From a virus (Duplodnaviria; Heunggongvirae; Uroviricota; Caudoviricetes), in the IMG/VR virus record IMGVR_UViG_2671180427_000010: a stretch of 17,783 nt of DNA. The stretch is one strand, 5' to 3'. A model generated the notes under the pieces. That model did no database searches. It was not told where the DNA came from and worked only from the letters and a program-made list of their open reading frames with translations. The translations under genes and the position numbers were made by a program. Numbering within the stretch: position 1 is the stretch's first letter; every line of letters begins with the position of its first letter. Shown in pieces: positions 2,784-17,608 of the stretch.

Positions 2784-3035
2784 TATCGCGTCCTCAACAA
2801 TGAATTTTGTGATGCGGTGCCTGGTGCCTCCAGGTGACGTTAACCAGTTAACAATTAACGCCGGATACAGAGAATCCACCCATAACACTGTTTTTGGTTT
2901 TAACTGTTCCGCGTGCGCTCAGCCGCATTCACCGCATCACAAAATTCACTTTAAAAACGGCGGCAGAGCAGTCACGGAGTAAAACTGATACCGCCAAACG
3001 TCACCAGAAAATTGATAACAGAGGGCGTTGCAGCG

Positions 3036-3985: not shown

Positions 3986-4101
3986 GTTGACCTCATTTCC
4001 CCTTAACGCCGGGGTAGCGGAACTGTTTGCTGAGAACACCGTGCGGTGTCTTGATGGATCGTAATTTAGTTTTCTCATGAATATTGGTCAAGTACTTTTA
4101 A

Positions 4102-4113
4102 TGAGAAAACTCA
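4102..4113. promoter_or_regulatory. operator-like palindrome TGAGAAAACTCA (left copy)
   Basis: Exact 12-bp palindrome TGAG-AAAA-CTCA, identical to a second copy at 4636-4647. Lies between DicA-like gene end and the next leftward gene. Confidence 0.5.
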
Positions 4114-4176
4114 ATATTTAATGCAAAATAAAGCCAATACATTGAAATGTAAGGCTTTAAAATTTGTGAAGGGGGG

Positions 4177-4584
4177 TTATTGATGTTTGTTACGTTTGCG
4201 AGCTTCTAGTAGCTCGGTGAATAGGCGATTAAAATTCTCAACGCGGGCACGGAGTTCGCTGATTTGTGCTTGCTGCTCTGATTTTGGAAGTGCGCGATAC
4301 AATCGCAACATCTCCAACTCATCTTCCGATAAGTCTAAGGCGCTGTTGAGTGCAACTGGTGGATCTGGTGTTTTATCCTCGTCACCAAACAGTATCCAAG
4401 TTGGTGAACATTGCAATACCTCAGCCAGGCGATGCAAATTTTGCCCGCGCGGGGCTGTATGGTCGCTTTCCCATAGTGAAATTGATGAGCCAGATACGCC
4501 AGCAGCTTTGCTTAAATCGTTTTGACTTAAACCAACCTGTTTGCGTCTTTCTCTAATTCGTTGACCTAAAGTTTTCTCGTTCAT
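4177..4584 (-). CDS. dicA: DicA-like XRE-family HTH repressor (135 aa)
   Basis: ORF track 135 aa. N-terminal HTH (GQRIRERRKQVGLSQNDLSKAAGVSGSSISLWE) and the motif LQCSPTWILFGDEDK recalled from E. coli DicA. Divergent from a Cro-like gene, flanked by identical operators. Confidence 0.75.
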   Translation of the reverse strand: MNEKTLGQRIRERRKQVGLSQNDLSKAAGVSGSSISLWESDHTAPRGQNLHRLAEVLQCSPTWILFGDEDKTPDPPVALNSALDLSEDELEMLRLYRALPKSEQQAQISELRARVENFNRLFTELLEARKRNKHQ

Positions 4585-4635
4585 ATTTAGATATCTTAAT
4601 AACCCTTGACTTGAGATTCCTTGAGTGATTACTAT

Positions 4636-4647
4636 TGAGAAAACTCA
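4636..4647. promoter_or_regulatory. operator-like palindrome TGAGAAAACTCA (right copy) in divergent promoter region
   Basis: Same 12-bp palindrome as at 4102, in the 77-bp intergenic region between DicA-like start (4584) and Cro-like start (4662). TTGAG half-site-like repeats at 4611 and 4621. Confidence 0.5.
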
Positions 4648-4661
4648 ACTTTGGAGGGGTG

Positions 4662-4889
4662 ATGTTTAAATCAGACGTAATTAATTTTTATGGGACGAAA
4701 GCCAAAGTAGCGAAAGCTGCTGGTGTTGATCCATCTGCTGTTTCTCAATGGGGGGAACTGGTTCCTGAAGGTCGCGCGATGCGCCTGCAAGAGGCATCCG
4801 GCGGGGAACTTCAGTACGACCCCAAAGTTTATGACGAATATCGTAAGGCAAAGCGGGCGGGGCGGTTGAACAATGAAAATCACCCCTGA
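4662..4889 (+). CDS. Cro-like small HTH regulator (DicC/YdaS-like), 75 aa
   Basis: ATG 4662 preceded by GGAGG (4653-4657); ORF-track start at 4635 is TTG. Protein MFKSDVINFYGTKAKVAKAAGVDPSAVSQWG. Divergent from repressor. Confidence 0.7.
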   Translation: MFKSDVINFYGTKAKVAKAAGVDPSAVSQWGELVPEGRAMRLQEASGGELQYDPKVYDEYRKAKRAGRLNNENHP

Positions 4890-5424
4890 ACAGGTTTGTG
4901 AGGCTCTGGATGCCTGGGTATGCCGACCAGGAATGACACAGGAGCAGGCGACGATATTAATCACGGAAGCATTCTGGGCTCTGAAAGAACGCCCGAACAT
5001 CGATGTTCAACGCGTCACGTTTAATGATGGCGAGGTTGATCAACGGGCGCTGGGCGTTAACCGGGTGAAGATATTCGAACGCTGGAAAGCTATCGACACC
5101 AGGGATAAGCGGAAAAAATTCACGGCGCTGATTCCGGCAATTATGGAGGCTATCCGAATTAGTGATTTCAGGCTGTATCGTGAGATCAGTGATGGAAAAA
5201 GCATTACGTACATGATCGCCGGATTAAACAAAGAATATGGCGATGTGGTGGAGTCCGGGCTGCTTTTTGCGGATCCAGCTGTTGTGGAACGTGAGACTGA
5301 CGAGCTTATAGAAAAAGCTATTGCTTTCAAGCATGCGTATCGTCAGCAATATCAATATTACTTTGCAGATAAACAAATGTCTGCCAGGGGTTCGTATGAG
5401 TATCGATGCACTACGATGGGCTAA
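4873..5424 (+). CDS. YdaT-like protein (183 aa), positional CII equivalent
   Basis: ATG 4873 overlaps stop of Cro-like gene (coupled). Position matches ydaT of Rac-type immunity regions. Family assignment from context and recollection only. Confidence 0.5.
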   Translation: MKITPEQVCEALDAWVCRPGMTQEQATILITEAFWALKERPNIDVQRVTFNDGEVDQRALGVNRVKIFERWKAIDTRDKRKKFTALIPAIMEAIRISDFRLYREISDGKSITYMIAGLNKEYGDVVESGLLFADPAVVERETDELIEKAIAFKHAYRQQYQYYFADKQMSARGSYEYRCTTMG

Positions 5425-6427
5425 AAAGGTGAAAACCGGCAGTTCATCCAGTAAGTCAGTATTGACCTGGCTTGCTGATATGTGCGGTGCCGATTTGTGT
5501 GCATACCCGTCTGTATCTGCCCTGGCAGAAGTAACGGAACTGAACAAAAAGACAGTGCAGGACAGCTTACGACACCTGATGGAGATTGGGTTAATTGTTG
5601 ATACCGGTGAGAGAAAAGGCAGAACAAAGCAAATTGTGGTGTACCGACTTATCGGTGTAGAAGAAAGTGTTGCCGAACCTGAATACACCCAAAAACGGGA
5701 GTCTTTAAAGGTGGGTAAAATTGGTGCTGTTAATAAAAACAGTACCGAAAATGGTTATGTTTCAGCACAAAACAGACCCAAAAACGGAACTCTTAGCTGC
5801 ATGGAAAATAACCAAAGACACCCAAATTTTCCATCAAAGACACCCAAAAACGGATCACGGAACCCAAAGGAACCCAAAGTTCTAAACCCCACACATAACG
5901 CACGCGAGAGTGCTCTGACCAGTGAGCAGGAAGTTTTGTCGTTACAGGCAGTATTCCTGGATGGCCTGAGAGAACCCATCGGAAAATTTCTGATGACCGA
6001 TAGCTGGCATCCGTCGCGGGATTTTCGACGACGGGCTGCGTTGTGGGGGATGGCTTTGCCGGAGCCGGAATTTACACCTGCTGAACTTGCCGCATTCCGG
6101 GATTACTGGAGTGATGAGGGGAAAGTGTTTACGCAGATTCAGTGGGAGCAGAAATTCGCCCGTCACGTAAATCACGTCAGGGCGCAGGTTAAACCAGTCA
6201 GCAAGGGGGTGAACCATGCAGCAGCACCAGGGGGCACCGCATCACGGGCAGTTCAGGAAATTCGGGCAGCACGTGAGCAGTGGGAACGTGAAAACGGATT
6301 TATCCGCGACGGAAACGGCGTGGAAGCTGTGGGAACTCATGGGGGAGGTTTATTCGAACCGCTGGACCCAGAAGAACGGGGCCGCACCTTCGAAGCTCTG
6401 GATTGCACAGATTGGTGCGATGACTGA
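5396..6427 (+). CDS. phage replication initiator, lambda O-like (winged-helix N-terminus, repeat-rich linker), 343 aa
   Basis: ATG 5396 with AGGGG 5 nt upstream, 29-nt overlap with upstream gene. N-terminal wHTH (LTWLADMCGADLCAYPSVSALAEVTELNKKTVQDSLRHLMEIGLI). Low-complexity linker encoded by iteron-like DNA repeats. Upstream of P-like gene. Confidence 0.6.
   Translation: MSIDALRWAKKVKTGSSSSKSVLTWLADMCGADLCAYPSVSALAEVTELNKKTVQDSLRHLMEIGLIVDTGERKGRTKQIVVYRLIGVEESVAEPEYTQKRESLKVGKIGAVNKNSTENGYVSAQNRPKNGTLSCMENNQRHPNFPSKTPKNGSRNPKEPKVLNPTHNARESALTSEQEVLSLQAVFLDGLREPIGKFLMTDSWHPSRDFRRRAALWGMALPEPEFTPAELAAFRDYWSDEGKVFTQIQWEQKFARHVNHVRAQVKPVSKGVNHAAAPGGTASRAVQEIRAAREQWERENGFIRDGNGVEAVGTHGGGLFEPLDPEERGRTFEALDCTDWCDD
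5772..5880. repeat. iteron-like direct repeats (ACCCAAA-containing) inside O-like gene; candidate replication origin
   Basis: AGACCCAAAAACGGA at 5773, AGACACCCAAA at 5816 and 5839, tandem GAACCCAAAG x2 at 5860-5879. AT-rich stretch immediately to the left (about 5720-5770). Confidence 0.45.
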
Positions 6428-6881
6428 GCAGCAAATCCGACAGGTCTGCCGCCAGTGCATGGACCGCTGCCGGGAGGGTGAAACATGGCCTCCGGACCTG
6501 GCTGAGTTTGTGGCACTGATTTCGGAAAGCGGAGCCAATCCATTCGGTCTGACGGTGGATGCTGTGATGGAGGAGTACCGCCGCTGGCGCAATGAGTCCT
6601 GGCGATACGACGGAAGTGATAAGTACCCGTGGTCTCAGCCTGTGCTGTATCACATTTGCCTCGAGATGCGTTCAAAGGGGGTTGAGCGCCAGATGACCGA
6701 AGGGGAATTAAAACGGCTTGCAGAACGGCAGCTGACGAAATGGGCAAAGCATGTTAGTAACGGCCTGAGCGTTCCGCCAGTCCGGCGACAACTGGCGGCA
6801 CCCAAACGCCCGTCGGGGCCAACGCCAATTGAGTTGCTGAAACAGGAATATGAACGCCGGAAAGCGGCTGGGCTTGTTTGA
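6216..6881 (+). CDS. replication protein P-like (lambda P family helicase loader), 221 aa
   Basis: ATG 6216 preceded by AGGGGGTG. Motifs resemble recalled lambda P (MTEQQIRQ, YPWSQPVLYHICLEM, TEGELKRLAERQL). Alternative start ATG 6420 overlaps the O-like stop (ATGACTGA). Confidence 0.6.
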   Translation: MQQHQGAPHHGQFRKFGQHVSSGNVKTDLSATETAWKLWELMGEVYSNRWTQKNGAAPSKLWIAQIGAMTEQQIRQVCRQCMDRCREGETWPPDLAEFVALISESGANPFGLTVDAVMEEYRRWRNESWRYDGSDKYPWSQPVLYHICLEMRSKGVERQMTEGELKRLAERQLTKWAKHVSNGLSVPPVRRQLAAPKRPSGPTPIELLKQEYERRKAAGLV

Positions 6882-6913
6882 GTTGAGAAGTAATTTTTAC
6901 CGGGAGGAAATTT

Positions 6914-7188
6914 ATGGAGACTGTTTTTGACGCACTGAAAGCAATGGGAAAAGCCACATCCATAGAACTTGCTGCGCGCGTGAAGAAGTGCTGAACGAAC
7001 TATGGGAACTGAAAAAGGCTGGTTTTGTTGATAAAAGCGCGTACACCTGGCGTGTGGCTGATAACAACGTTCAGCAGGAACAGCCAGCGCAGGCAGAACT
7101 GCCGGAAGAAACCACCACAATGAGTGAAGTTATGCAGCGCATACTGGCATTTTATCAGGGAAATGTTCGATATTTTAGACGTTACTAG
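6914..7188 (+). pseudogene. small winged-helix protein gene apparently split by a 1-nt frameshift near 6988
   Basis: ATG 6914 with GGGAGGAAA upstream encodes [26 protein letters not shown] then stop at 6992. Continuation in another frame from 6988 ([23 protein letters not shown]) resembles the intact small gene at 16375. Confidence 0.35.
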
Positions 7189-7554
7189 ATTAAAGAGCAT
7201 TAGTTCAGATGTGAATTGACATTGTGTGGCACAGGGTTGGGCTAGCGTGGGGGTTTGCTTTGTGTAAGAAACGGATGCTCTGCAAATTACTACTAATGCT
7301 TAATGTTAGTCTGATCTGCTCCCCGATGATTAATACACCGCTATGTTAGTAATGTCTGTAGATCGCTGTGTGTTGCATCCATCGGTTGACCCCACAGTCC
7401 AAACCAGACTGTCAGCTTTGATTCGATTCTATCTACTCAACCTGTCAGGTAATGTCTGAGCTAATACACAGAGTACGGCTATCGCGAACTTTAAGCTAGG
7501 TATCTGATACGCACCGTTCACTTGTTTGTACTTCTTGCACTGACTAGCTATCGT

Positions 7555-7590
7555 GCGCAGTTATTTATAGGTAATCTCCAGTGTATAATT
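7555..7590 (+). promoter_or_regulatory. candidate promoter for the 281-aa gene (TATAAT -10 at 7584-7589)
   Basis: Consensus TATAAT at 7584-7589 with TG immediately upstream, about 40 nt before ATG 7628. The -35 is weak (TTATTT at 7561-7566). Confidence 0.35.
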
Positions 7591-7627
7591 TTCCAACTTA
7601 TGGGAGATTGTAAAACAGGAGGAATAT

Positions 7628-8473
7628 ATGAGGAAAAAATCGTTTGGACGTTGCCCGTTTGATTTCGACGAAGATGTAAAAAAAATAGCCGCGATAAATA
7701 AATATATCCATGCGAAATTTGAGAGGCATAAAAATAAAATAGATAACCTAAAGGGGGTGGAACAAAAATTGATGGTTTTACATTACTTTAATGTACTGAA
7801 TGAACTTAGTAATCAGGCTATATTTTCTTTGAGTACCGGAGCCTTTTCAGCATCGGAAGTATTAACTAGAGTTATAATGGAACAGGCTGCCAATCAATTT
7901 TATATAGCAATTGATGATGGAAAAAATGCACAAGCATTACTCAAGGGTAGTAAGAAATTAGTTCATAGTAATGGGAAACGGTGGCTGGAGTGTTTAAAAT
8001 CCAAAGAAATGACTAATCCAGCAGCAGATGAAAGGATTCGTATCGGAAAAGAGCTAACTGATATGTTTAATAGATTGTGGCCAAATACACCTGAATATCC
8101 TGGAACCAAAAAGCTTTTCGAAGTAATTGGCTGGGAAACACACTATCATGCCTATTACGTCCCTCTTTGTGATTCAATACATACATTCTCTGATGATATG
8201 GCAAATATAGTATCTCTATATAATGCAATCCAAAGCGATAAAACTACTGCTATCGAACTCACTCTTGCAGTTAAACAAGAAAATAAACGGCTGGCAATTT
8301 ATAATGTCGTAATTGCTATTGGCCTGCGGTGTGAGGCCTTAGTAAATGTATTTAACTCTTTAGGTTATCGAGATATTATAACTGAAATGGCGCCAACAAT
8401 AGATGCAGTCAACCAGATTATAATTCGATATGATGATTTCGAACATTCCAGAATTTTTATTGTCAATAATTAA
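7628..8473 (+). CDS. hypothetical protein (281 aa), AT-rich, no recognised domain; candidate accessory or defence gene
   Basis: ATG 7628 preceded by AGGAGG (7616-7621). ORF track 281 aa. No Walker, RT or nuclease motifs seen by eye; a C-terminal R-x5-H (RYDDFEH) is too weak to interpret. Confidence 0.75.
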   Translation: MRKKSFGRCPFDFDEDVKKIAAINKYIHAKFERHKNKIDNLKGVEQKLMVLHYFNVLNELSNQAIFSLSTGAFSASEVLTRVIMEQAANQFYIAIDDGKNAQALLKGSKKLVHSNGKRWLECLKSKEMTNPAADERIRIGKELTDMFNRLWPNTPEYPGTKKLFEVIGWETHYHAYYVPLCDSIHTFSDDMANIVSLYNAIQSDKTTAIELTLAVKQENKRLAIYNVVIAIGLRCEALVNVFNSLGYRDIITEMAPTIDAVNQIIIRYDDFEHSRIFIVNN

Positions 8474-8526
8474 TTGGCAGAATTCGTACATGCACAACAA
8501 CTAGTTATAGTTGACCTATTTCGCTC

Positions 8527-9095
8527 TTGAGAGACAACCATACTCAAATCTTCCACATTGCAGGAGATTTGAGTATGAATACGTCACCGAGGAACAAAGA
8601 CAGTATCATAGGCCCAAAAAGACCACTTCAGATATCTCATATCTGGGGGCTCCAAATCCGGCTTGAACTGGAAGGTAAAACGCGTGATTTAGCTCGGTTT
8701 CAAGCAGAGCTACGGTGCTGCAACTGAAAAACTGGCAGTCCTATCCAATTTGAGATAACCAAAGGGACAAGAGAAGCTGTTTCTGCATTGATAAAGCTTG
8801 GCAATTTACGCAGTAAAGACTACTTGTTCCGATCTCGGGTCGGTACTAACCAACACATATCAATCCTGCAATATAACCGAATCTTTCATAGGGGGGAGAA
8901 AAGCTTGGTCTCGAAGATTCGCTTTACAGCACACATTCCATGAGAAGAACAAAACCTTGCCTTGTCTGCAAGAAAACTAAGAATCTCCGGGTGATCCAAC
9001 TTCCGTTGGGCCATAAGAAAACGGAAAGCACAGTTCGTTATCTGGGTATAGAAGTTGATGATGCATTAGAGATCTCTGAATCGATCGAAGTCTAA
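8527..9095 (+). pseudogene. tyrosine recombinase (phage integrase) C-terminal fragment with in-frame stop and frameshifts
   Basis: Frame 1 reads GLQIRLELEGKTRDL, in-frame TGA at 8725-8727, then KTGSPIQFEITKGTREAV...DYLFRSRVG. A second frame has RRFALQHTFHEKNKT. A third frame (8940-9095) ends RVIQLPLGHKKTESTVRYLGIEV, matching the conserved integrase C-terminal LGH...T..Y motif. Confidence 0.55.
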
Positions 9096-9101
9096 AGCTG
9101 T

Positions 9102-9123
9102 CAGGGCTGCAGCAGCAGCCCTG
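9102..9123. other. perfect 9-bp stem hairpin (CAGGGCTGC-AGCA-GCAGCCCTG) just after the integrase fragment
   Basis: Exact inverted repeat with 4-nt loop; no U-tract on either strand, so not a typical intrinsic terminator. Confidence 0.4.
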
Positions 9124-9507
9124 TGCCAAGAGCGTACCAATATATGTCTCAAAAAATTGGGCACAGGTCAATATCAATACCAACAACTCTGATTGTGCTC
9201 ATGTGATTTACTCCTGTAGAAAACGCAGACAGTAAAAATATTTCACTGGCTGCTTCAGACAGGGCGTCCATCATATCATTACATAACAATAGCGGGGCAC
9301 GATATCTAGACATGCAGCAACGATGGACATAGAATGAGTACAATCAAAAGCATGTTTAACTACTTTAATTTAAAAATCTTAGAATCTTAGGTGTAGAGTT
9401 CAATACTTAGTTACATACCCTTTTGAAAGCATCACAAATCATAACTATGAGCCTGTTAAAGGCATAGGTATTCTTAATTAAGAGCATTTTAATGAGAGAA
9501 AAATAAA

Positions 9508-10881
9508 ATGAAAAGACTATATTATACCCATCATGATAGTCGAACCTTAAAACTTGCTATAGAAGGTGATGTTTCTGATAATGCGAATATTTTTACAGTA
9601 ATTGTAGGTAAAAATGGCGTTGGAAAAAGCAGATTGTTATCTCAGATTGCTAAAGACTGTATTCAAGATGTTCATTTCTTGAAAACTTTTAATCCATTAT
9701 TTGACAGAGAAATAACACCAAAGTTAATTGCCGTATCTACCAGCCCATTCGATAAATTCCCTCCAGGGCGTAGGTCATTAAATCACCAAAGGAAAGAAAA
9801 TAATTATCGCTATGTGGGTATGCGTGGAGAAGGCCCCTTCGGCGTATCAAATGCCGTATCCCTTTTATCTTCAGCAGCGAGAGGTTGGCTAGAGAAACTT
9901 GCTTATTCAGAAAATCCTGCAAATTTACTCGATGTTTTTCATTCTATTGATTTTGAGCCCCATATAGAGTTTGTATTTAAACCAACTTACAACGGACCGG
10001 ACACTCCTGACTATAACTTCATTGGTGTATATTCAGATGAGATATTAACGGAAGTTAAGGAGTTATATTTAAAATACAATATAAAAATTGACAGGAAGAA
10101 TATTGAGAGTCTCTTAAAGTTAAACTCCGAATCACGTCATGATATTTACGAAGCACTGGTTGAAATTAATCGATTTGAACCTGAACGTAGGGCTGTAACC
10201 TTGTCAGTCGATTTTACCAATGGTGAAACATTGGTTGGCTCGACTTATGCGAATAATTATTTTTCTAGATCAATTCTTAAACTTATGAACGCTGGCTTCA
10301 TGAGATTGATGGATATGCGACTCATAAAAAAAAGCTATGGTCCCATGTCACTTAAACGTGCGAGCTCGGGAGAACAATGTTTATTAGTGATGTTGCTTGG
10401 AATTGCAGGGCATATAACTGATGGTTCTATAATATTAATTGATGAACCGGAAATAAGCTTGCATCCTCGATGGCAGGAAGAGTTTATCATTATGTTAACA
10501 AAAGCATTTTTAACTTACTCAGGTTGTCAATTCATAATTGCAACTCATTCACCACAAATAATATCCAATTTGCCGAATAAAGGTTGTTATATAACATCTT
10601 TGTCGAAAAGTTATCTTTATAAAGCAAAATACTTTAGCAACCGGTCTGCAGACTATCAACTTGCGGAACTATTTGATGCCCCTGGCATTATGAATGAATA
10701 CATTGCCAGGTTAGCTTTCAATTTACTTTCAAAAGTTAAGACTGCTAAGTTAGTAACAGATGATAATTGGCGTGAATTAAAACAACTCCAACTTCTCCTT
10801 GAAAACGTTAATAGTAATGACCCTATTAATGAACTCGTAAATTCCGTATCTCAGGTGTGTGAAATTTATGCCAAAAATTAA
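9508..10881 (+). CDS. ptuA: ABC-type ATPase, Septu PtuA-like (457 aa)
   Basis: Walker A VGKNGVGKS, signature-like SSGEQ, Walker B IILIDEPE, H-loop IATHSP. AT-rich. Followed by an overlapping HNH nuclease gene, the Septu two-gene architecture. Confidence 0.7.
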   Translation: MKRLYYTHHDSRTLKLAIEGDVSDNANIFTVIVGKNGVGKSRLLSQIAKDCIQDVHFLKTFNPLFDREITPKLIAVSTSPFDKFPPGRRSLNHQRKENNYRYVGMRGEGPFGVSNAVSLLSSAARGWLEKLAYSENPANLLDVFHSIDFEPHIEFVFKPTYNGPDTPDYNFIGVYSDEILTEVKELYLKYNIKIDRKNIESLLKLNSESRHDIYEALVEINRFEPERRAVTLSVDFTNGETLVGSTYANNYFSRSILKLMNAGFMRLMDMRLIKKSYGPMSLKRASSGEQCLLVMLLGIAGHITDGSIILIDEPEISLHPRWQEEFIIMLTKAFLTYSGCQFIIATHSPQIISNLPNKGCYITSLSKSYLYKAKYFSNRSADYQLAELFDAPGIMNEYIARLAFNLLSKVKTAKLVTDDNWRELKQLQLLLENVNSNDPINELVNSVSQVCEIYAKN

Positions 10882-11503
10882 AAATCCAATTAGATTCAGC
10901 GCAGAGTCATTAGATATTATTGAGAAAAAATTGTCTTCTCCAGATTTTAAGCATACCAACTGGGGAGATGATGATTTGCAAGTTCTCCGTGCAGAAATTA
11001 GAAATCATTACAGAGAAGAACAAAAGCTAGAATGTGTATATTGTCATGAGCCTATTGGGGTAAGAGCTGCACAAGCTGCTCCTATAGAGCATATTGTGCC
11101 AAAATCTCAATATCTATGTTTTATTTTTGAACCTAAGAATCTATGTGTAGTATGTCCTGACTGCAATGAATTCAAAGGTAAAAATGAAGTGTTATTTGAA
11201 CCCGTAATAAATGGGGGGCGGCGCAAAAACTATCCAACTGCATCTGCATCATTTCGCATCGTTCATCCACATATAGATGATTATGAGATGCATATTATAA
11301 AAGCAAATCGTGTTTATGTGGACAAAACACCTAAAGGGCACTATACCATTGGAATATGTAAACTAAATAGATTTTTTCATTATTTTGGGATGTGTGATGA
11401 ATTTGTTAATGATGCAAAAATTGCTGAGGCAAATGAAAATTTTTTCAAAAAAGGTAGTATTACTACTAATGAATTATTGGATGATGACATTCATTTGATT
11501 TAA
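10868..11503 (+). CDS. ptuB: HNH endonuclease, Septu PtuB-like (211 aa)
   Basis: HNH motifs CVYCHEPIG, IEHIVPKS, CVVCPDCNEFKG. ATG 10868 overlaps ATPase gene end by 14 nt (ORF-track start 10859 is GTG). Confidence 0.7.
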   Translation: MPKIKNPIRFSAESLDIIEKKLSSPDFKHTNWGDDDLQVLRAEIRNHYREEQKLECVYCHEPIGVRAAQAAPIEHIVPKSQYLCFIFEPKNLCVVCPDCNEFKGKNEVLFEPVINGGRRKNYPTASASFRIVHPHIDDYEMHIIKANRVYVDKTPKGHYTIGICKLNRFFHYFGMCDEFVNDAKIAEANENFFKKGSITTNELLDDDIHLI

Positions 11504-11816
11504 CTATGAATTATTATATTGTAAAGTAATCAGGTAAGATATGTTAGACAGTGAGACTATTGCCTTACAGAATTCATTATTCTTATGGATCGCCTTTCTG
11601 ACTGATTTCATATTGGCGGGGTAACGGGAGTTAAGTAGAATGGCTGCGGGTGCTTGAGGCTATCTGTCTCAGGCATGAACACCAAAGGCAGATAGAGAAA
11701 AGCCCCAGTTAACATTACGCGTCCTGCAAGACGCTTAACATTAATCTGAGGCCAATTTCATGCTAGACACATGTAGGTTAGCCTCTTACGTGCCGGAAGG
11801 CAAGGAGAAGCAGGCT

Positions 11817-11972
11817 ATGAAGCAGCAAAAGGCGATGTTAATCGCCCTGATCGTCATCTGTTTAACCGTCATAGTGACGACACTGGTAACGAGGAAAGAC
11901 CTCTGCGAGGTACGAATCCGAACCGGCCAGACGGAGGTCGCTGTCTTCACAGCTTACGAACCTGAGGAGTAA
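11817..11972 (+). CDS. hokD: Hok/Gef-family type I toxin, HokD (RelF)-like, 51 aa
   Basis: Protein MKQQKAMLIALIVICLTVIVTTLVTRKDLCEVRIRTGQTEVAVFTAYEPEE matches the Hok family (TM helix, conserved C and Y). AAGGAG 8 nt upstream of ATG 11817. ORF-track start at 11760 is an in-frame extension. Confidence 0.8.
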   Translation: MKQQKAMLIALIVICLTVIVTTLVTRKDLCEVRIRTGQTEVAVFTAYEPEE

Positions 11973-12040
11973 GAGACCCGGCGAGGGAGAAATCCCTCGC
12001 CACCTCTGATGTGGCAGGCATCCTCAACGCACCCGCACTT

Positions 12041-12072
12041 AACCCGCTTCGGCGGGTTTTTGTTTTTATTTT
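12041..12072 (+). terminator. rho-independent terminator downstream of hokD-like gene
   Basis: Stem AACCCGC/GCGGGTT with TTCG loop followed by a T-run (12057-12072). Preceded by a 9-bp stem with GAAA tetraloop at 11980-12001. Confidence 0.6.
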
Positions 12073-12188
12073 CAACGCGTTTGAAGTTCTGGACGGCGCC
12101 GGAATAGAATCAAAAATACTTAAGTAGCGCGCAGGGATAAGAGGGATGGTCCCTTAAAGGGGAGAGCTAATTATCCGGAAGGATTCTG

Positions 12189-12440
12189 ATGATGAACATC
12201 GAAGAACTGCGTAAAATTTTTTGTGAAGATGGCCTCTATGCTGTGTGCGTTGAAAATGGAAATCTTGTTAGTCATTACCGCATTATGTGTTTGCGAAAGA
12301 ATGGGGCTGCGTTAATTAATTTTGTGGATGGTCGAGTGACAGACGGATTTATCTTGCGCGAAGGTGAGTTTGTCACTTCATTACAGGCACTGAAAGAGAT
12401 CGGAATAAAAGCAGGCTTTTCAGCTTTTGCAGAAGAATAA
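12189..12440 (+). CDS. rem: Rem-like small protein (83 aa)
   Basis: ORF track 83 aa MMNIEELRKIFCEDGLYAVCVENGN. Position immediately downstream of hokD, as in the Qin prophage. Identification from recollection. Confidence 0.55.
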   Translation: MMNIEELRKIFCEDGLYAVCVENGNLVSHYRIMCLRKNGAALINFVDGRVTDGFILREGEFVTSLQALKEIGIKAGFSAFAEE

Positions 12441-12506
12441 ACTCATCTACAATCTTGCGCGGGGCTGAACTCCCGCTGAGTAACACCGTGCCACCGGAGA
12501 AAACCG

Positions 12507-14601: not shown

Positions 14602-14631
14602 TGACCATATACATTGTCCGGGGCTATATTC
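14602..14631 (+). promoter_or_regulatory. PR'-like late promoter (TTGACC, 18-bp spacer, TATATT)
   Basis: -35 TTGACC 14602-14607 and -10 TATATT 14626-14631, immediately downstream of the Q gene. Confidence 0.5.
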
Positions 14632-14692
14632 CTCGCGCGTCAGCAAAATCTGGCGTCGGGATTGGAACCCCGGATATTCAACCGCGACAGAC

Positions 14693-14717
14693 ACACGCCG
14701 CGAGCGTGTTTTTTATT
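14693..14717 (+). terminator. tR'-like intrinsic terminator (Q-antiterminated)
   Basis: Stem ACACGC/GCGTGT with CGCGA loop followed by TTTTTTATT, about 75 nt downstream of the PR'-like -10. Confidence 0.55.
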
Positions 14718-14878
14718 GTCGTAAGCACACGCACATCTGAATAATGGTGGGGCGTATGGGGGAGCTGAAAGGCTCGCCGGTTGGTTGATCCGGTAGTTCC
14801 AACCCTGTACGTCTCACCACCCAATGATTGGAACCTGACGGTGGTGATAGTTAAATCCATCAACCAGAGGGCGTTATC

Positions 14879-15439
14879 ATGACGACTCAAGTTTCTGTCG
14901 AAACTCTTTCCCCGATCACACACAACCAGCTCCCAGTTGTCACTACAGAGTTACTGGCCAAACTATATGGCTGTAGCGTCGAGTGTATTCATAGAAATCA
15001 CCACCGTAATAAAGAGCGATTTGCAGAAGGGAAGCACTACATAATTGCGAAAGGCGCAGACCTCCAAAATTTGAAAATCTCTTTAAGGGATTTTCAAACG
15101 ATCGCCCCAAATGTCCGAAAGCTCATACTCTGGACAGAACGCGGAGCAGCCCGTCACGCCAAAATGCTCGAAACCGATCAGGCGTGGGAAGTATTCGAAA
15201 AACTGGAAGACTGTTATTTCAACCAAAAACAACCACCAGCGGCACAAAACACATCTATCGAAAATGATGGATGCGCATTACTGATCCACTTCGATAAACA
15301 TGGTCAGGTTGAGTTCACGGAAAAGGTGCCCGCCGATGCGATGGTATGCACTCTGGAACGGTTTAAATTTTATCTGGAGCAACACGGGTGGATCGTTGCC
15401 CGTAAAGAGCAACTGGTGGAGCGGTTGATGCGGCTTTAA
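14879..15439 (+). CDS. ORF6N-domain protein (antirepressor-like), 186 aa
   Basis: AGAGGG upstream of ATG 14879. N-terminal region (LPVVTTELLAKLYGCSVECIHRNHHRNKERFAEGKHYII...RKLILWTERGAARHAKM) resembles the ORF6N/Rha-type domain by recollection. Confidence 0.55.
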   Translation: MTTQVSVETLSPITHNQLPVVTTELLAKLYGCSVECIHRNHHRNKERFAEGKHYIIAKGADLQNLKISLRDFQTIAPNVRKLILWTERGAARHAKMLETDQAWEVFEKLEDCYFNQKQPPAAQNTSIENDGCALLIHFDKHGQVEFTEKVPADAMVCTLERFKFYLEQHGWIVARKEQLVERLMRL

Positions 15440-15541: not shown

Positions 15542-16262
15542 TGCACAGAAAACCCCCAGCTAGGCTGGGGGTTCCGGAAAGCTTTCAGCTTTGAGCCAGT
15601 TATTAAAACCCCTTTTGATTTGTTAAAACACCTTGCGGTCTGGCAACTGCAAGTGTCAAACAAGAAATCAAAAGGGGGTCCCAATGGGGAACGAAAAGAG
15701 CTTAGCGCACACCCGATGGAACTGTAAATATCACATAGTATTTGCGCCAAAATACCGAAGACAGGTGTTCTACAGAGAGAAGCGTAGAGCAATAGGCTGT
15801 ATTTTGAGAAAGCTGTGTGAGTGGAAAAGTGTACGGATTCTGGAAGCTGAATGCTGTGCAGATCATATCCATATGCTTGTGGAGATCCCGCCCAAAATGA
15901 GCGTATCCGGCTTTATGGGATATCTGAAAGGGAAAAGCAGTCTGATGCTTTACGAGCAGTTTGGTGATTTGAAATTCAAGTACAGGAACAGGGAGTTCTG
16001 GTGCAGAGGGTATTACGTCGATACGGTGGGTAAGAACACGGCGAAGATACAGGATTACATAAAGCACCAGCTTGAAGAGGATAAAATGGGAGAGCAGTTA
16101 TCGATTCCCTATCCGGGCAGCCCGTTTACGGGCCGTAAGTAACGAAGTTGGATGCAAATGTCAGATCGTGTGCGCCTGTTAGGGCGCGGCTGGTAAGAGA
16201 GCCTTATAGGCGCATTTGAAAAACCTCCGGCTATGCCGGAGGATATTTATTGTGCCCGAAAA
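15532..16262 (+). mobile_element. IS200/IS605-family insertion sequence (IS200-like); boundaries approximate
   Basis: Contains Y1 transposase gene. Subterminal hairpins with 8-bp stem and 3-nt loop on both sides: CCCCCAGC-TAG-GCTGGGGG (15552-15570) and CCTCCGGC-TAT-GCCGGAGG (16234-16252). Ends estimated, not determined. Confidence 0.5.
15684..16142 (+). CDS. tnpA: IS200-type Y1 transposase TnpA (152 aa)
   Basis: MGNEKSLAHTRWNCKYHIVFAPKYRR...HIHMLVEIPPKMSVSGFMGYLKGKSS...NREFWCRGYYVDTVG has the HUH motif (HIHML) and catalytic Y region of IS200 TnpA. AAGGGGG upstream of ATG 15684. Confidence 0.85.
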   Translation: MGNEKSLAHTRWNCKYHIVFAPKYRRQVFYREKRRAIGCILRKLCEWKSVRILEAECCADHIHMLVEIPPKMSVSGFMGYLKGKSSLMLYEQFGDLKFKYRNREFWCRGYYVDTVGKNTAKIQDYIKHQLEEDKMGEQLSIPYPGSPFTGRK

Positions 16263-17448: not shown

Positions 17449-17524
17449 GGCCTTTTAGCTCAGTGGTGAGAGCGAGCGACTCATAATCGCCAGGTCGCTG
17501 GTTCAAATCCAGCAAGGGCCACCA
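17449..17524 (+). tRNA. tRNA-Ile2-like, anticodon CAU (lysidine type; could be Met by anticodon alone)
   Basis: Hand-folded cloverleaf: acceptor GGCCTTT/AAGGGCC, D-arm GCTC-AGTGGTGA-GAGC, anticodon loop CTCATAA, T-arm GCTGG-TTCAAAT-CCAGC, discriminator A, CCA. Resembles recalled E. coli ileX. Confidence 0.75.
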
Positions 17525-17531
17525 TCACATA

Positions 17532-17608
17532 CCGCCATTAGCTCATCAGGAAAGAGCGCCAGCTTTCGAAGCTGGTTGCGCGGAGTTCGGGTCCCCGAAG
17601 GCGGTCCA
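17532..17608 (+). tRNA. tRNA-Arg-like, anticodon UCG, with non-canonical T-arm (possibly degenerate)
   Basis: Acceptor CCGCCAT/AAGGCGG (one mismatch), D-arm GCTC/GAGC, perfect anticodon stem CCAGC/GCTGG with loop TTTCGAA, T-arm CGGAG-TTCGGGT-CCCCG (one mismatch, G at position 58), CCA. Confidence 0.5.

Follow-up and report, generated by a model that had tools for sequence, protein, structure and literature searches.

A cluster of direct repeats at positions 5685-5879 of a 17,783-nt stretch of prophage DNA (IMG/VR virus record IMGVR_UViG_2671180427_000010; hereafter the window, numbered from its first nucleotide) is, with a probability of roughly 80%, an oriλ-type replication origin of the prophage. 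The window represents a lambdoid E. coli prophage, and the cluster lies inside the gene of the prophage's own replication initiator (5396-6427, + strand; 343 aa), in the part that codes for a linker between an HTH_36-like winged helix and a DnaT-like domain; a lambda-P-like helicase loader is encoded next to it. By sequence analysis, the iterons of the cluster were shown to share one orientation and the core CCC-AAAAAC-GG, and to be conserved as DNA beyond coding needs.

The heptamer ACCCAAA occurs on the + strand at 5687, 5776, 5820, 5842, 5862, and 5872, and only once (6800) in the rest of the 17.8-kb window. These six copies fall within 192 nt (5687-5878), whereas the largest one-strand cluster in 300 first-order Markov versions of the window was two per 200 nt; when the model was trained instead on the A-rich sequence of the region itself, none of 5000 simulated 351-nt pieces held at least five copies. 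The exact 12-mer ACCCAAAAACGG was present three times (5687, 5776, and 5842) and was not found outside the cluster in the window, and Tandem Repeats Finder reported the 10-mer GGAACCCAAA in 2.1 copies at 5859-5879. The heptamers are read in frames 0, 2, 1, 2, 1, and 2, within the peptides TQKR, RPKN, HPNF, TPKN, NPK, and EPK, respectively; because a peptide repeat would hold one frame, this spread over three frames indicates a repeat at the DNA level. A preliminary description of this DNA had reported five ACCCAAA repeats, including a tandem 10-mer, within 5772-5880 and had interpreted them as iterons. The cluster is real, and all five repeats, the 10-mer among them, are present, but the sixth copy at 5687 lies upstream of that range, and the repeating unit is a 16-17-nt sequence spanning 5685-5856 rather than five 7-mers.

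The iteron unit reads ACACCCAAAAACGG(G/A), with three strong and three weaker copies, all on the + strand. The strong copies are iteron 1 (5685-5701, ACACCCAAAAACGGGAG), iteron 2 (5774-5790, AGACCCAAAAACGGAAC), and iteron 4, the last of the array (5840-5856, ACACCCAAAAACGGATC). A position weight matrix (PWM) derived solely from five foreign phages (EPP-1, phiV10, Vibrio H20, Acinetobacter AB1, and Bcep176) placed iterons 2, 1, and 4, in this order, as the best three sites in the window on both strands, and its scan of the 17.8 kb revealed no second motif cluster. The site at 5741-5757 (AGTACCGAAAATGGTTA), ranked fifth by the PWM, carries a T at 5752 that is C in many E. coli alleles, a change that converts the weak site ACCGAAAATGG into the consensus iteron ACCGAAAACGG; the window allele therefore holds a weakened copy. 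The decayed site at 5711-5727 (GTGGGTAAAATTGGTGC) is polymorphic between E. coli alleles; in Salmonella, Klebsiella, Yokenella, Enterobacter, and Edwardsiella, the aligned position holds a complete iteron, (C/A)CCAAAAACGG. Variant iteron 3 (5818-5834, ACACCCAAATTTTCCAT) is conserved in position, and other genera carry CCCGTTTTTTCC there. Together, the strong and the weak or decayed copies (5685-5856) code for aa 97-154 of the initiator, between the winged helix and the DnaT domain.

With the first 170 aa of the initiator as the query, tblastn revealed relatives in phages of Edwardsiella, Escherichia (the phiV10 group), Vibrio, Acinetobacter, Burkholderia, and Moraxella, and in a podovirus from wastewater sludge (EBPR). 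The CCC-A-tract-GG motif follows the winged-helix domain directly, in four to seven copies, in 12 of the 14 homologous initiators examined. It reads ACACCCAAAAACGGG in EPP-1, CC(A/G)AAAACGGGA in phiV10, GGCCCGAAAACGGTAC in five tandem copies in Vibrio H20, CCCAAATTTGGG in AB1, GTCCCAAA.. in Bcep176, AGTCCCAAAAACGGGAC in EBPR1, GATCCCAAAATTGGGAT in Edwardsiella phage GF-2, and GGTACCGAAATTGGTAC in Ab105-2phi. The family consensus GTCCC-N6-GGGAC is symmetric, with perfect palindromes in AB1 and GF-2, and the copies are read in differing frames within and between genes, EBPR1 and Bcep176 using all three. The motif was absent from the remaining two of the 14 homologues, Mcat8 (wing motif DTGDKYKK) and BS46 (DTKMRKGQ), both of which also depart from the wing motif DTGE(R/K)xG. 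In Moraxella phage Mcat8 (L090 1800-2050), whose N-terminus is a more distant homologue, the position of the iterons is taken by three 84-bp tandem repeats coding for KGGTILHERGCKNDTPNNFVS, which may be an origin of different specificity.

Conservation was then resolved by column in a six-genus alignment (A3) of full-length homologues with 52-57% identity (Klebsiella, Enterobacter, Salmonella, and Yokenella), EPP-1, and the window, with their DNA. Cores of the ACCCAAAAACGG type were found in the Salmonella, Klebsiella, Yokenella, and Enterobacter prophage homologues. Invariant columns numbered 11 of 12 in the cores of both iteron 1 (5687-5698) and iteron 4 (5842-5853), 7 of 12 in iteron 2, 5 of 12 in iteron 3, and 22 of 111 in the spacers. 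Eight of 12 third-codon positions were invariant in the cores of iterons 1, 2, and 4, compared with 2 of 52 synonymous sites of the N-terminal domain (Fisher P=4e-6), a strongly conserved domain whose synonymous third positions are saturated (pairwise identity 0.40). The preliminary description had named a lack of DNA-level conservation in homologous initiator genes as refuting its reading; the repeats were found to be conserved, both in their occurrence (12/14) and in their third-codon positions.

The search for related loci over viral contigs gave only loci whose N-terminal and iteron regions match the window at about 99% identity. The population sample of 80 such IMG/VR loci, with 90-100% identity in the C-terminal half, contained 27 alleles of 5684-5880, every one 197 nt long. 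Of 5,426 complete E. coli genomes, 908 carry the segment made up of the N-terminal domain and the iterons, in prophages of enterohaemorrhagic E. coli (EHEC) among others; Klebsiella, Enterobacter, and Salmonella have close homologues over the full length, and no origin is annotated for the segment. A protein search with the N-terminus alone matched mostly fragments. Several database homologues (P0008 of Klebsiella, with 162 aa, P0004, and P0006) are about 160 aa long and end within the linker. The iteron region of P0008 is read in the QKR(D/E) frame (TQKREHYQKRD...SQKRDPES), which looks like a frameshift inside the iteron array; given such a frameshift, the short homologues may be inactivated initiators that retain the binding domain and the sites.

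The initiator matches phrog_1032 ('replication initiation protein') over residues 1-295 (E 2e-88). AlphaFold2, run on an alignment of the window protein with database sequences, predicted an N-terminal winged-helix DNA-binding domain at aa 1-88 (5396-5659) with the topology H-H-H-H-E-E, a predicted local distance difference test (pLDDT) score of 70-83, and the wing motif DTGERKGRT. Foldseek related this domain weakly to MarR, ArsR, and Rep winged helices (E 0.02-0.1), and HTH_36 scored 20.8 bits, under the 25-bit cut-off; the corresponding Pfam entry, PF13730, is precomputed for many homologues with 52-57% identity. The linker at aa 89-192, within which the repeats encode approximately aa 97-162, is predicted to be disordered (pLDDT ~31), which would allow it to tolerate embedded DNA signals. 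A DnaT-like single-stranded DNA (ssDNA)-binding domain follows at aa 194-265 (5975-6190), with a Pfam DnaT score of 61 bits (cut-off 25), matches to PDB 6aep and 4ou6 at E 1e-18 to 1e-20 (6aep, 8e-20), and a Foldseek template-modelling (TM) score of 0.9 at 54-58% identity; the confident AlphaFold2 domain spans aa 197-265.

The preliminary description had called the initiator O-like, but the protein consists of an HTH_36-like winged helix and a DnaT domain, and its N-terminus is only distantly linked to lambda O. Pfam Phage_rep_O (PF04492) gave no match to the initiator at E<=0.01. The initiator N-terminus and lambda O both match phrog_678, phrog_345, and phrog_391; lambda O does so through its N-terminal part for the first two, which supply the only link between the two N-termini at the profile level, an indirect one, and only through C-terminal aa 140-292 for phrog_391. 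For this last family, the window N-terminus and the lambda O C-terminus lie on different halves of the profile, which points to module mixing and not to N-terminal homology.

As in oriλ, the direct repeats are placed centrally in the initiator gene, where they separate the DNA-binding N-terminal part from the loader-contacting C-terminal part (PMC7466680). In both cases, the repeats include A-tracts, the linker that they encode is flexible, the pR operon that holds them continues with a P-type gene, and the N-terminus and the iterons form an exchangeable module. The annotated lambda iteron ATCCCTCAAAACGAGGGA, present in four copies, has the TCCC arm, A-tract, CG, and GGGA arm in common with the consensus found here; the family consensus GTCCC-AAAAAC-GGGAC is similar to ATCCCTC-AAAAC-GAGGGAT of lambda and 2-3 nt shorter. 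Differences are also clear: the iterons are 16-17 nt rather than 19 nt long, with the right dyad arm mostly missing, their spacing is irregular (56, 33, 44, and 22) compared with 20-24 in lambda, and the C-terminal domain is DnaT-like, unlike that of lambda O. Directly past iteron 4, lambda has a 40-bp AT-rich tract with a 40-mer of 20% GC, whereas tandem repeats with a GAAY core are found here. The lambda layout proposed in the preliminary description holds for the intragenic iterons, but a strongly AT-rich tract like that of lambda is absent past the last iteron.

The 'O' protein of Edwardsiella phage GF-2 is a natural hybrid, with an N-terminus and iterons of the HTH_36/DnaT-initiator type (E 7e-17), 62% identity to lambda O aa 156-299 from residue 137 onward, and a P-type gene next. 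In GF-2, the N-terminal/iteron module thus takes the place of lambda's origin in a replication operon that is otherwise of the lambda type. A mosaic joint is also present in the window, just past the cluster: AAACCCCACACATA at 5884-5897 (+), which codes for LNPTHN, is conserved in the six-genus alignment and marks the start of the C-terminal module. YdaU of Rac-SA53 and the initiator of pPE4 match the window protein in the C-terminal half only, their N-termini being unrelated; their megablast matches start at about 5903 and 5953, and both proteins share NPTH(S/N)AR (coded at about 5885) upstream of these DNA matches, the point from which the proteins are alike. The joint core AAACCCCACAC recurs in Rac-SA53 (L004 2476-2486). 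The GF-2 hybrid and the joints just past the cluster indicate that the N-terminal domain and iterons behave as one exchangeable specificity module, and the AAACCCCACACATA joint may serve as a recombination linker for module exchange.

The GAAY repeats at 5858-5879 (+), CGGAACCCAAAG GAACCCAAAG, include the tandem 10-mer detected by Tandem Repeats Finder. The preliminary description had counted this 10-mer among the iterons, an assignment that we rejected: its two heptamers have only 3 and 1 of 7 invariant columns, respectively, align with GGAATCTACCA..GGAACC in other genera, and belong to a separate class of post-iteron repeats. A GAAY-containing heptamer was found at a fixed offset past the last iteron in all 13 homologues examined, mostly as C(A/G)GAA(C/T)C (GGGAATC in Salmonella; ending in A in Bcep176 and EBPR1), followed by one to three more units of 9-13 nt with a GAAY core. 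The units are GGAACCCAAA x2 in the window, AACCAGTCATAT x3 in phiV10, GAACCAGTCAT in H20, AGAAACAACCAA in AB1, GAACAGTAG x4 in Bcep176, and GGAACAG x3 in EBPR1, and they are read in at least three frames across the homologues, which come from phages of Enterobacteria, Vibrio, Acinetobacter, and Burkholderia and from the wastewater-sludge podovirus. The tandem periodicity of the post-iteron segment was significant in 9 of the 13, the others being Salmonella, Enterobacter, Yokenella, and EPP-1. Position 5858-5879 is a candidate unwinding or loading element and, speculatively, the functional counterpart of lambda's AT-rich region. A bipartite origin new to lambdoid phages, in which iterons are combined with a GAAY element that replaces the AT-rich tract as a sequence-specific site of unwinding or helicase loading, is possible but on balance doubtful; the initiator might read this element as ssDNA, by analogy with plasmid DNA unwinding element (DUE) 13-mers or DnaA-trios.

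The 11.0-bp AA periodicity at 5651-5890 is the maximum of the window (2.03 against a mean of 0.13, sd 0.18; z ~10), and the starts of seven CC cores (iterons 1-4, the weak site at 5741, and the two 10-mer heptamers, with the decayed site at 5711 excluded), which lie 57, 32, 44, 22, 20, and 10 nt apart, fit a phase of 10.9 bp (R=0.81, P=0.03). The DNA is accordingly predicted to be intrinsically bent, with A-tracts phased at 11 bp. An adjoining AT-rich stretch, as claimed in the preliminary description, exists locally (34% GC at 5701-5773, compared with 50% in the gene and 45% in the window), but it is modest and lies between iterons. The gene's lowest-GC 40-mer (30%) also sits between iterons 1 and 2, at a position that is not conserved among homologues, and an AT-rich DUE was rejected on the grounds that the local stability minimum is ordinary for the window and its position is not kept in homologues. 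No DnaA boxes were found within 1 kb of the cluster, and their total in the window was at chance level.

The initiator gene, used as query, is 96% identical to PPompW prophages of EHEC strains and lies in the early-right operon. A cI/DicA-like repressor gene (4177-4584, - strand; Pfam HTH_3, E 1e-16), annotated as dicA in the PPompW prophage, is followed by a sigma-70-like promoter, TTGACT-18-TACTAT (4606-4635, +), identified by its consensus match only. This pR equivalent lies directly upstream of the cro-like gene (4635-4889, +; Pfam P22_Cro, E 1e-17), is the sole promoter-like site within 4100-7300, and would drive transcription across the origin. A YdaT-like gene in the cII position (4873-5424, +; Pfam YdaT_toxin, E 2e-5), the initiator gene, and the lambda-P-like helicase-loader gene (6216-6881, +; Pfam Phage_lambda_P, E 7e-17 over residues 56-188; start uncertain) complete the series, and the gene order, including the YdaT-like gene and the P-like gene downstream of the initiator, is the same in four further loci (L095-L098). 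The longest P-like open reading frame overlaps the 3' end of the initiator gene by 212 nt (6216-6427) in another frame, and the Pfam match from residue 56 is still within this overlap; the P-like gene was called long in Klebsiella (L095) and Salmonella (L097) and short in Enterobacter and Yokenella.

Two deposited circular 'plasmids' without a typed replicon consist of the immunity/replication segment of the prophage. pZ1323HEC0067-2 (L099, NZ_CP148379.1; 8,461 bp) is colinear with window positions 4023-12473 at 99.2% identity and carries Septu and hokD; at its junction, position 12473 is joined to 4023 beside a 16-nt imperfect microhomology, GCTGAG(T)AACACCGTGC. pZ1322PEC0161-3 (L101, NZ_CP148543.1; 15,643 bp) has different end points. 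Possible readings of these records are λdv-like mini-replicons, DNA left by escape replication, and artefacts of assembly, and their support for autonomous replication is suggestive only.

Several observations weigh against reading the cluster as an oriλ-type origin. Both dyad arms (CCC...GGG) are present in iteron 1 only, iterons 2 and 4 ending in GGA, and the hhalign comparison of the initiator N-terminus with that of lambda O was weak (probability 5%, E 0.008, 40 columns). The stretch at 5701-5773 is unexceptional in the nearest-neighbour profile, approximately 10% of window positions being less stable (z ~1.4), and there is no strongly AT-rich tract to the right of the last iteron, where the next 100 nt have 50% GC. 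Among the 27 E. coli alleles, polymorphic sites were not depleted in the cores (9 of 31, compared with 10.9 expected), a population comparison too shallow to have discriminating power. The two circular records have a single sequencing project as their source and may have arisen during assembly, and the searchable literature holds no binding, unwinding, or replication data for the HTH_36/DnaT-domain initiator family.

The best-surviving alternative, although unlikely, is that the iterons bind the initiator but serve regulation (autoregulation, titration or handcuffing, or exclusion of related phages), with replication starting elsewhere in the prophage. Iterons do act in plasmid copy control, no clear AT-rich unwinding element adjoins the array, and only three of about seven sites are strong. 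However, the GF-2 module sits in the exact slot of lambda's origin within an O/P-type operon, the 17.8-kb window contains no second motif cluster, and an origin agrees with the conservation of the post-iteron repeats and with the phasing of the A-tracts at 11 bp. It is less probable still that the sites are bound by a protein other than the initiator N-terminus, for example the product of the YdaT-like gene, a nucleoid protein of the host, or the P-like protein. Nucleoid proteins are attracted to bent DNA rich in A-tracts, but the motif accompanies the winged helix even where YdaT, the DnaT domain, or a P-like gene is missing from the phage (in AB1 and Ab105-2phi, the neighbour is a DnaB-like helicase instead), and it shifts together with the wing motif in Mcat8, BS46, and Ab105-2phi. 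The weakest explanation, a PKNG/QKR low-complexity linker that arose by slippage and is kept for flexibility without a function of its DNA, agrees with the disorder of the encoded linker and with the spacings in phiV10 and Vibrio H20, which are multiples of 3 and give PKNG/PENG peptide repeats, but is largely refuted: two or three frames are used to read the core in each of the window, EPP-1, Bcep176, and EBPR1, and its third-codon positions are conserved where synonymous sites elsewhere are saturated.

If the cluster is an oriλ-type origin, the N-terminal winged helix of the initiator would bind the iterons after transcription from the pR-like promoter, and the bound initiator would wrap the intrinsically bent DNA into an O-some-like complex. 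Flanking DNA would then open, candidates for the site being the GAAY repeats to the right of iteron 4 and the 34%-GC spacer at 5701-5773, and the DnaT-like domain would hold the ssDNA and, with the P-like protein, deliver host DnaB. The N-terminal domain and iterons would form an exchangeable specificity module that is joined to differing C-terminal, loader-contacting modules across phages.

In iteron plasmids (RepA, RepE, pi, and TrfA; oriV-type), a winged-helix initiator is combined with several direct repeats in the same orientation and with short tandem repeats near the opening region; their sites lie outside the rep gene, usually with DnaA boxes and an AT-rich DUE, whereas the sites described here are intragenic with no DnaA box near. 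E. coli DnaT has an ssDNA-binding domain like the C-terminal domain of the initiator, but it has no domain that binds DNA in a sequence-specific manner, and its role is in PriA-dependent restart rather than at an origin. YdaU of the Rac prophage (Rac-SA53) and the 'replisome organizer' initiators related to it are alike in their C-terminal halves (~85-90% identical) and in the order cro-ydaT-initiator-P-like, but differ in their N-termini (DUF1376 and others) and have other short repeats, with no CCCAAAAACGG motif, at the equivalent place. The bacterial genes DopC/DopE, for which domestication of phage O/P genes has been proposed (Brezellec et al. 2017, PMC5509034), have the identical domain architecture, with the HTH_36 N-terminus, the DnaT C-terminal motif, and a partner homologous to replication protein P. 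No iteron-like sequences were reported by these authors for dopC (PMC5509034), whereas the prophage initiator gene keeps a conserved array, as expected of the undomesticated phage form of a DopC-type initiator. In the searchable literature, no paper described iterons of phiV10/epsilon15-type initiators or gave CCCAAAAACGG a role in an origin, and papers on Rac oriJ/ydaU offered nothing at the sequence level. The intragenic iteron type of origin is already known; for HTH_36/DnaT initiators, the origin, the conserved consensus, and the post-iteron repeats appear to be unrecorded in that literature.

Other features of the window lie outside the replication region. The Septu anti-phage defence pair at 9508-11503, consisting of PtuA (AAA ATPase, 9508-10881; PADLOC E 1e-165) and PtuB (HNH, 10859-11503; PADLOC E 1e-83), is located in the most AT-rich and least stable part of the window (about 9300-11550) and looks like a defence island in the nin-like region of the prophage. 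Rfam searches revealed the DicF small RNA (2958-3009, - strand), a sok/hok (gef) module (11648-11972), isrK with C4 antisense RNA and a1/b1 targets (14624-14824), STnc490 (15551-15674), and two tRNA genes (17449-17605). The isrK/C4 group precedes an ORF6N antirepressor-like gene (14879-15439) and resembles a P1/P7 immI-like module.

A located origin makes prophage induction and escape replication accessible to tests, explains the positions of mosaic exchange points in initiator genes, and offers defined sites for building mini-replicons or blocking replication. Were the doubtful bipartite reading true, the module would suffice for autonomous replication, and the 8.46-kb circle with Septu and hok would be a natural λdv-like defence plasmid. 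The comparison also shows what the domesticated bacterial DopC has lost, and the TCCC-A-tract-GGGA logic common to this family and lambda suggests that the O-type origins of very different phages descend from one design.

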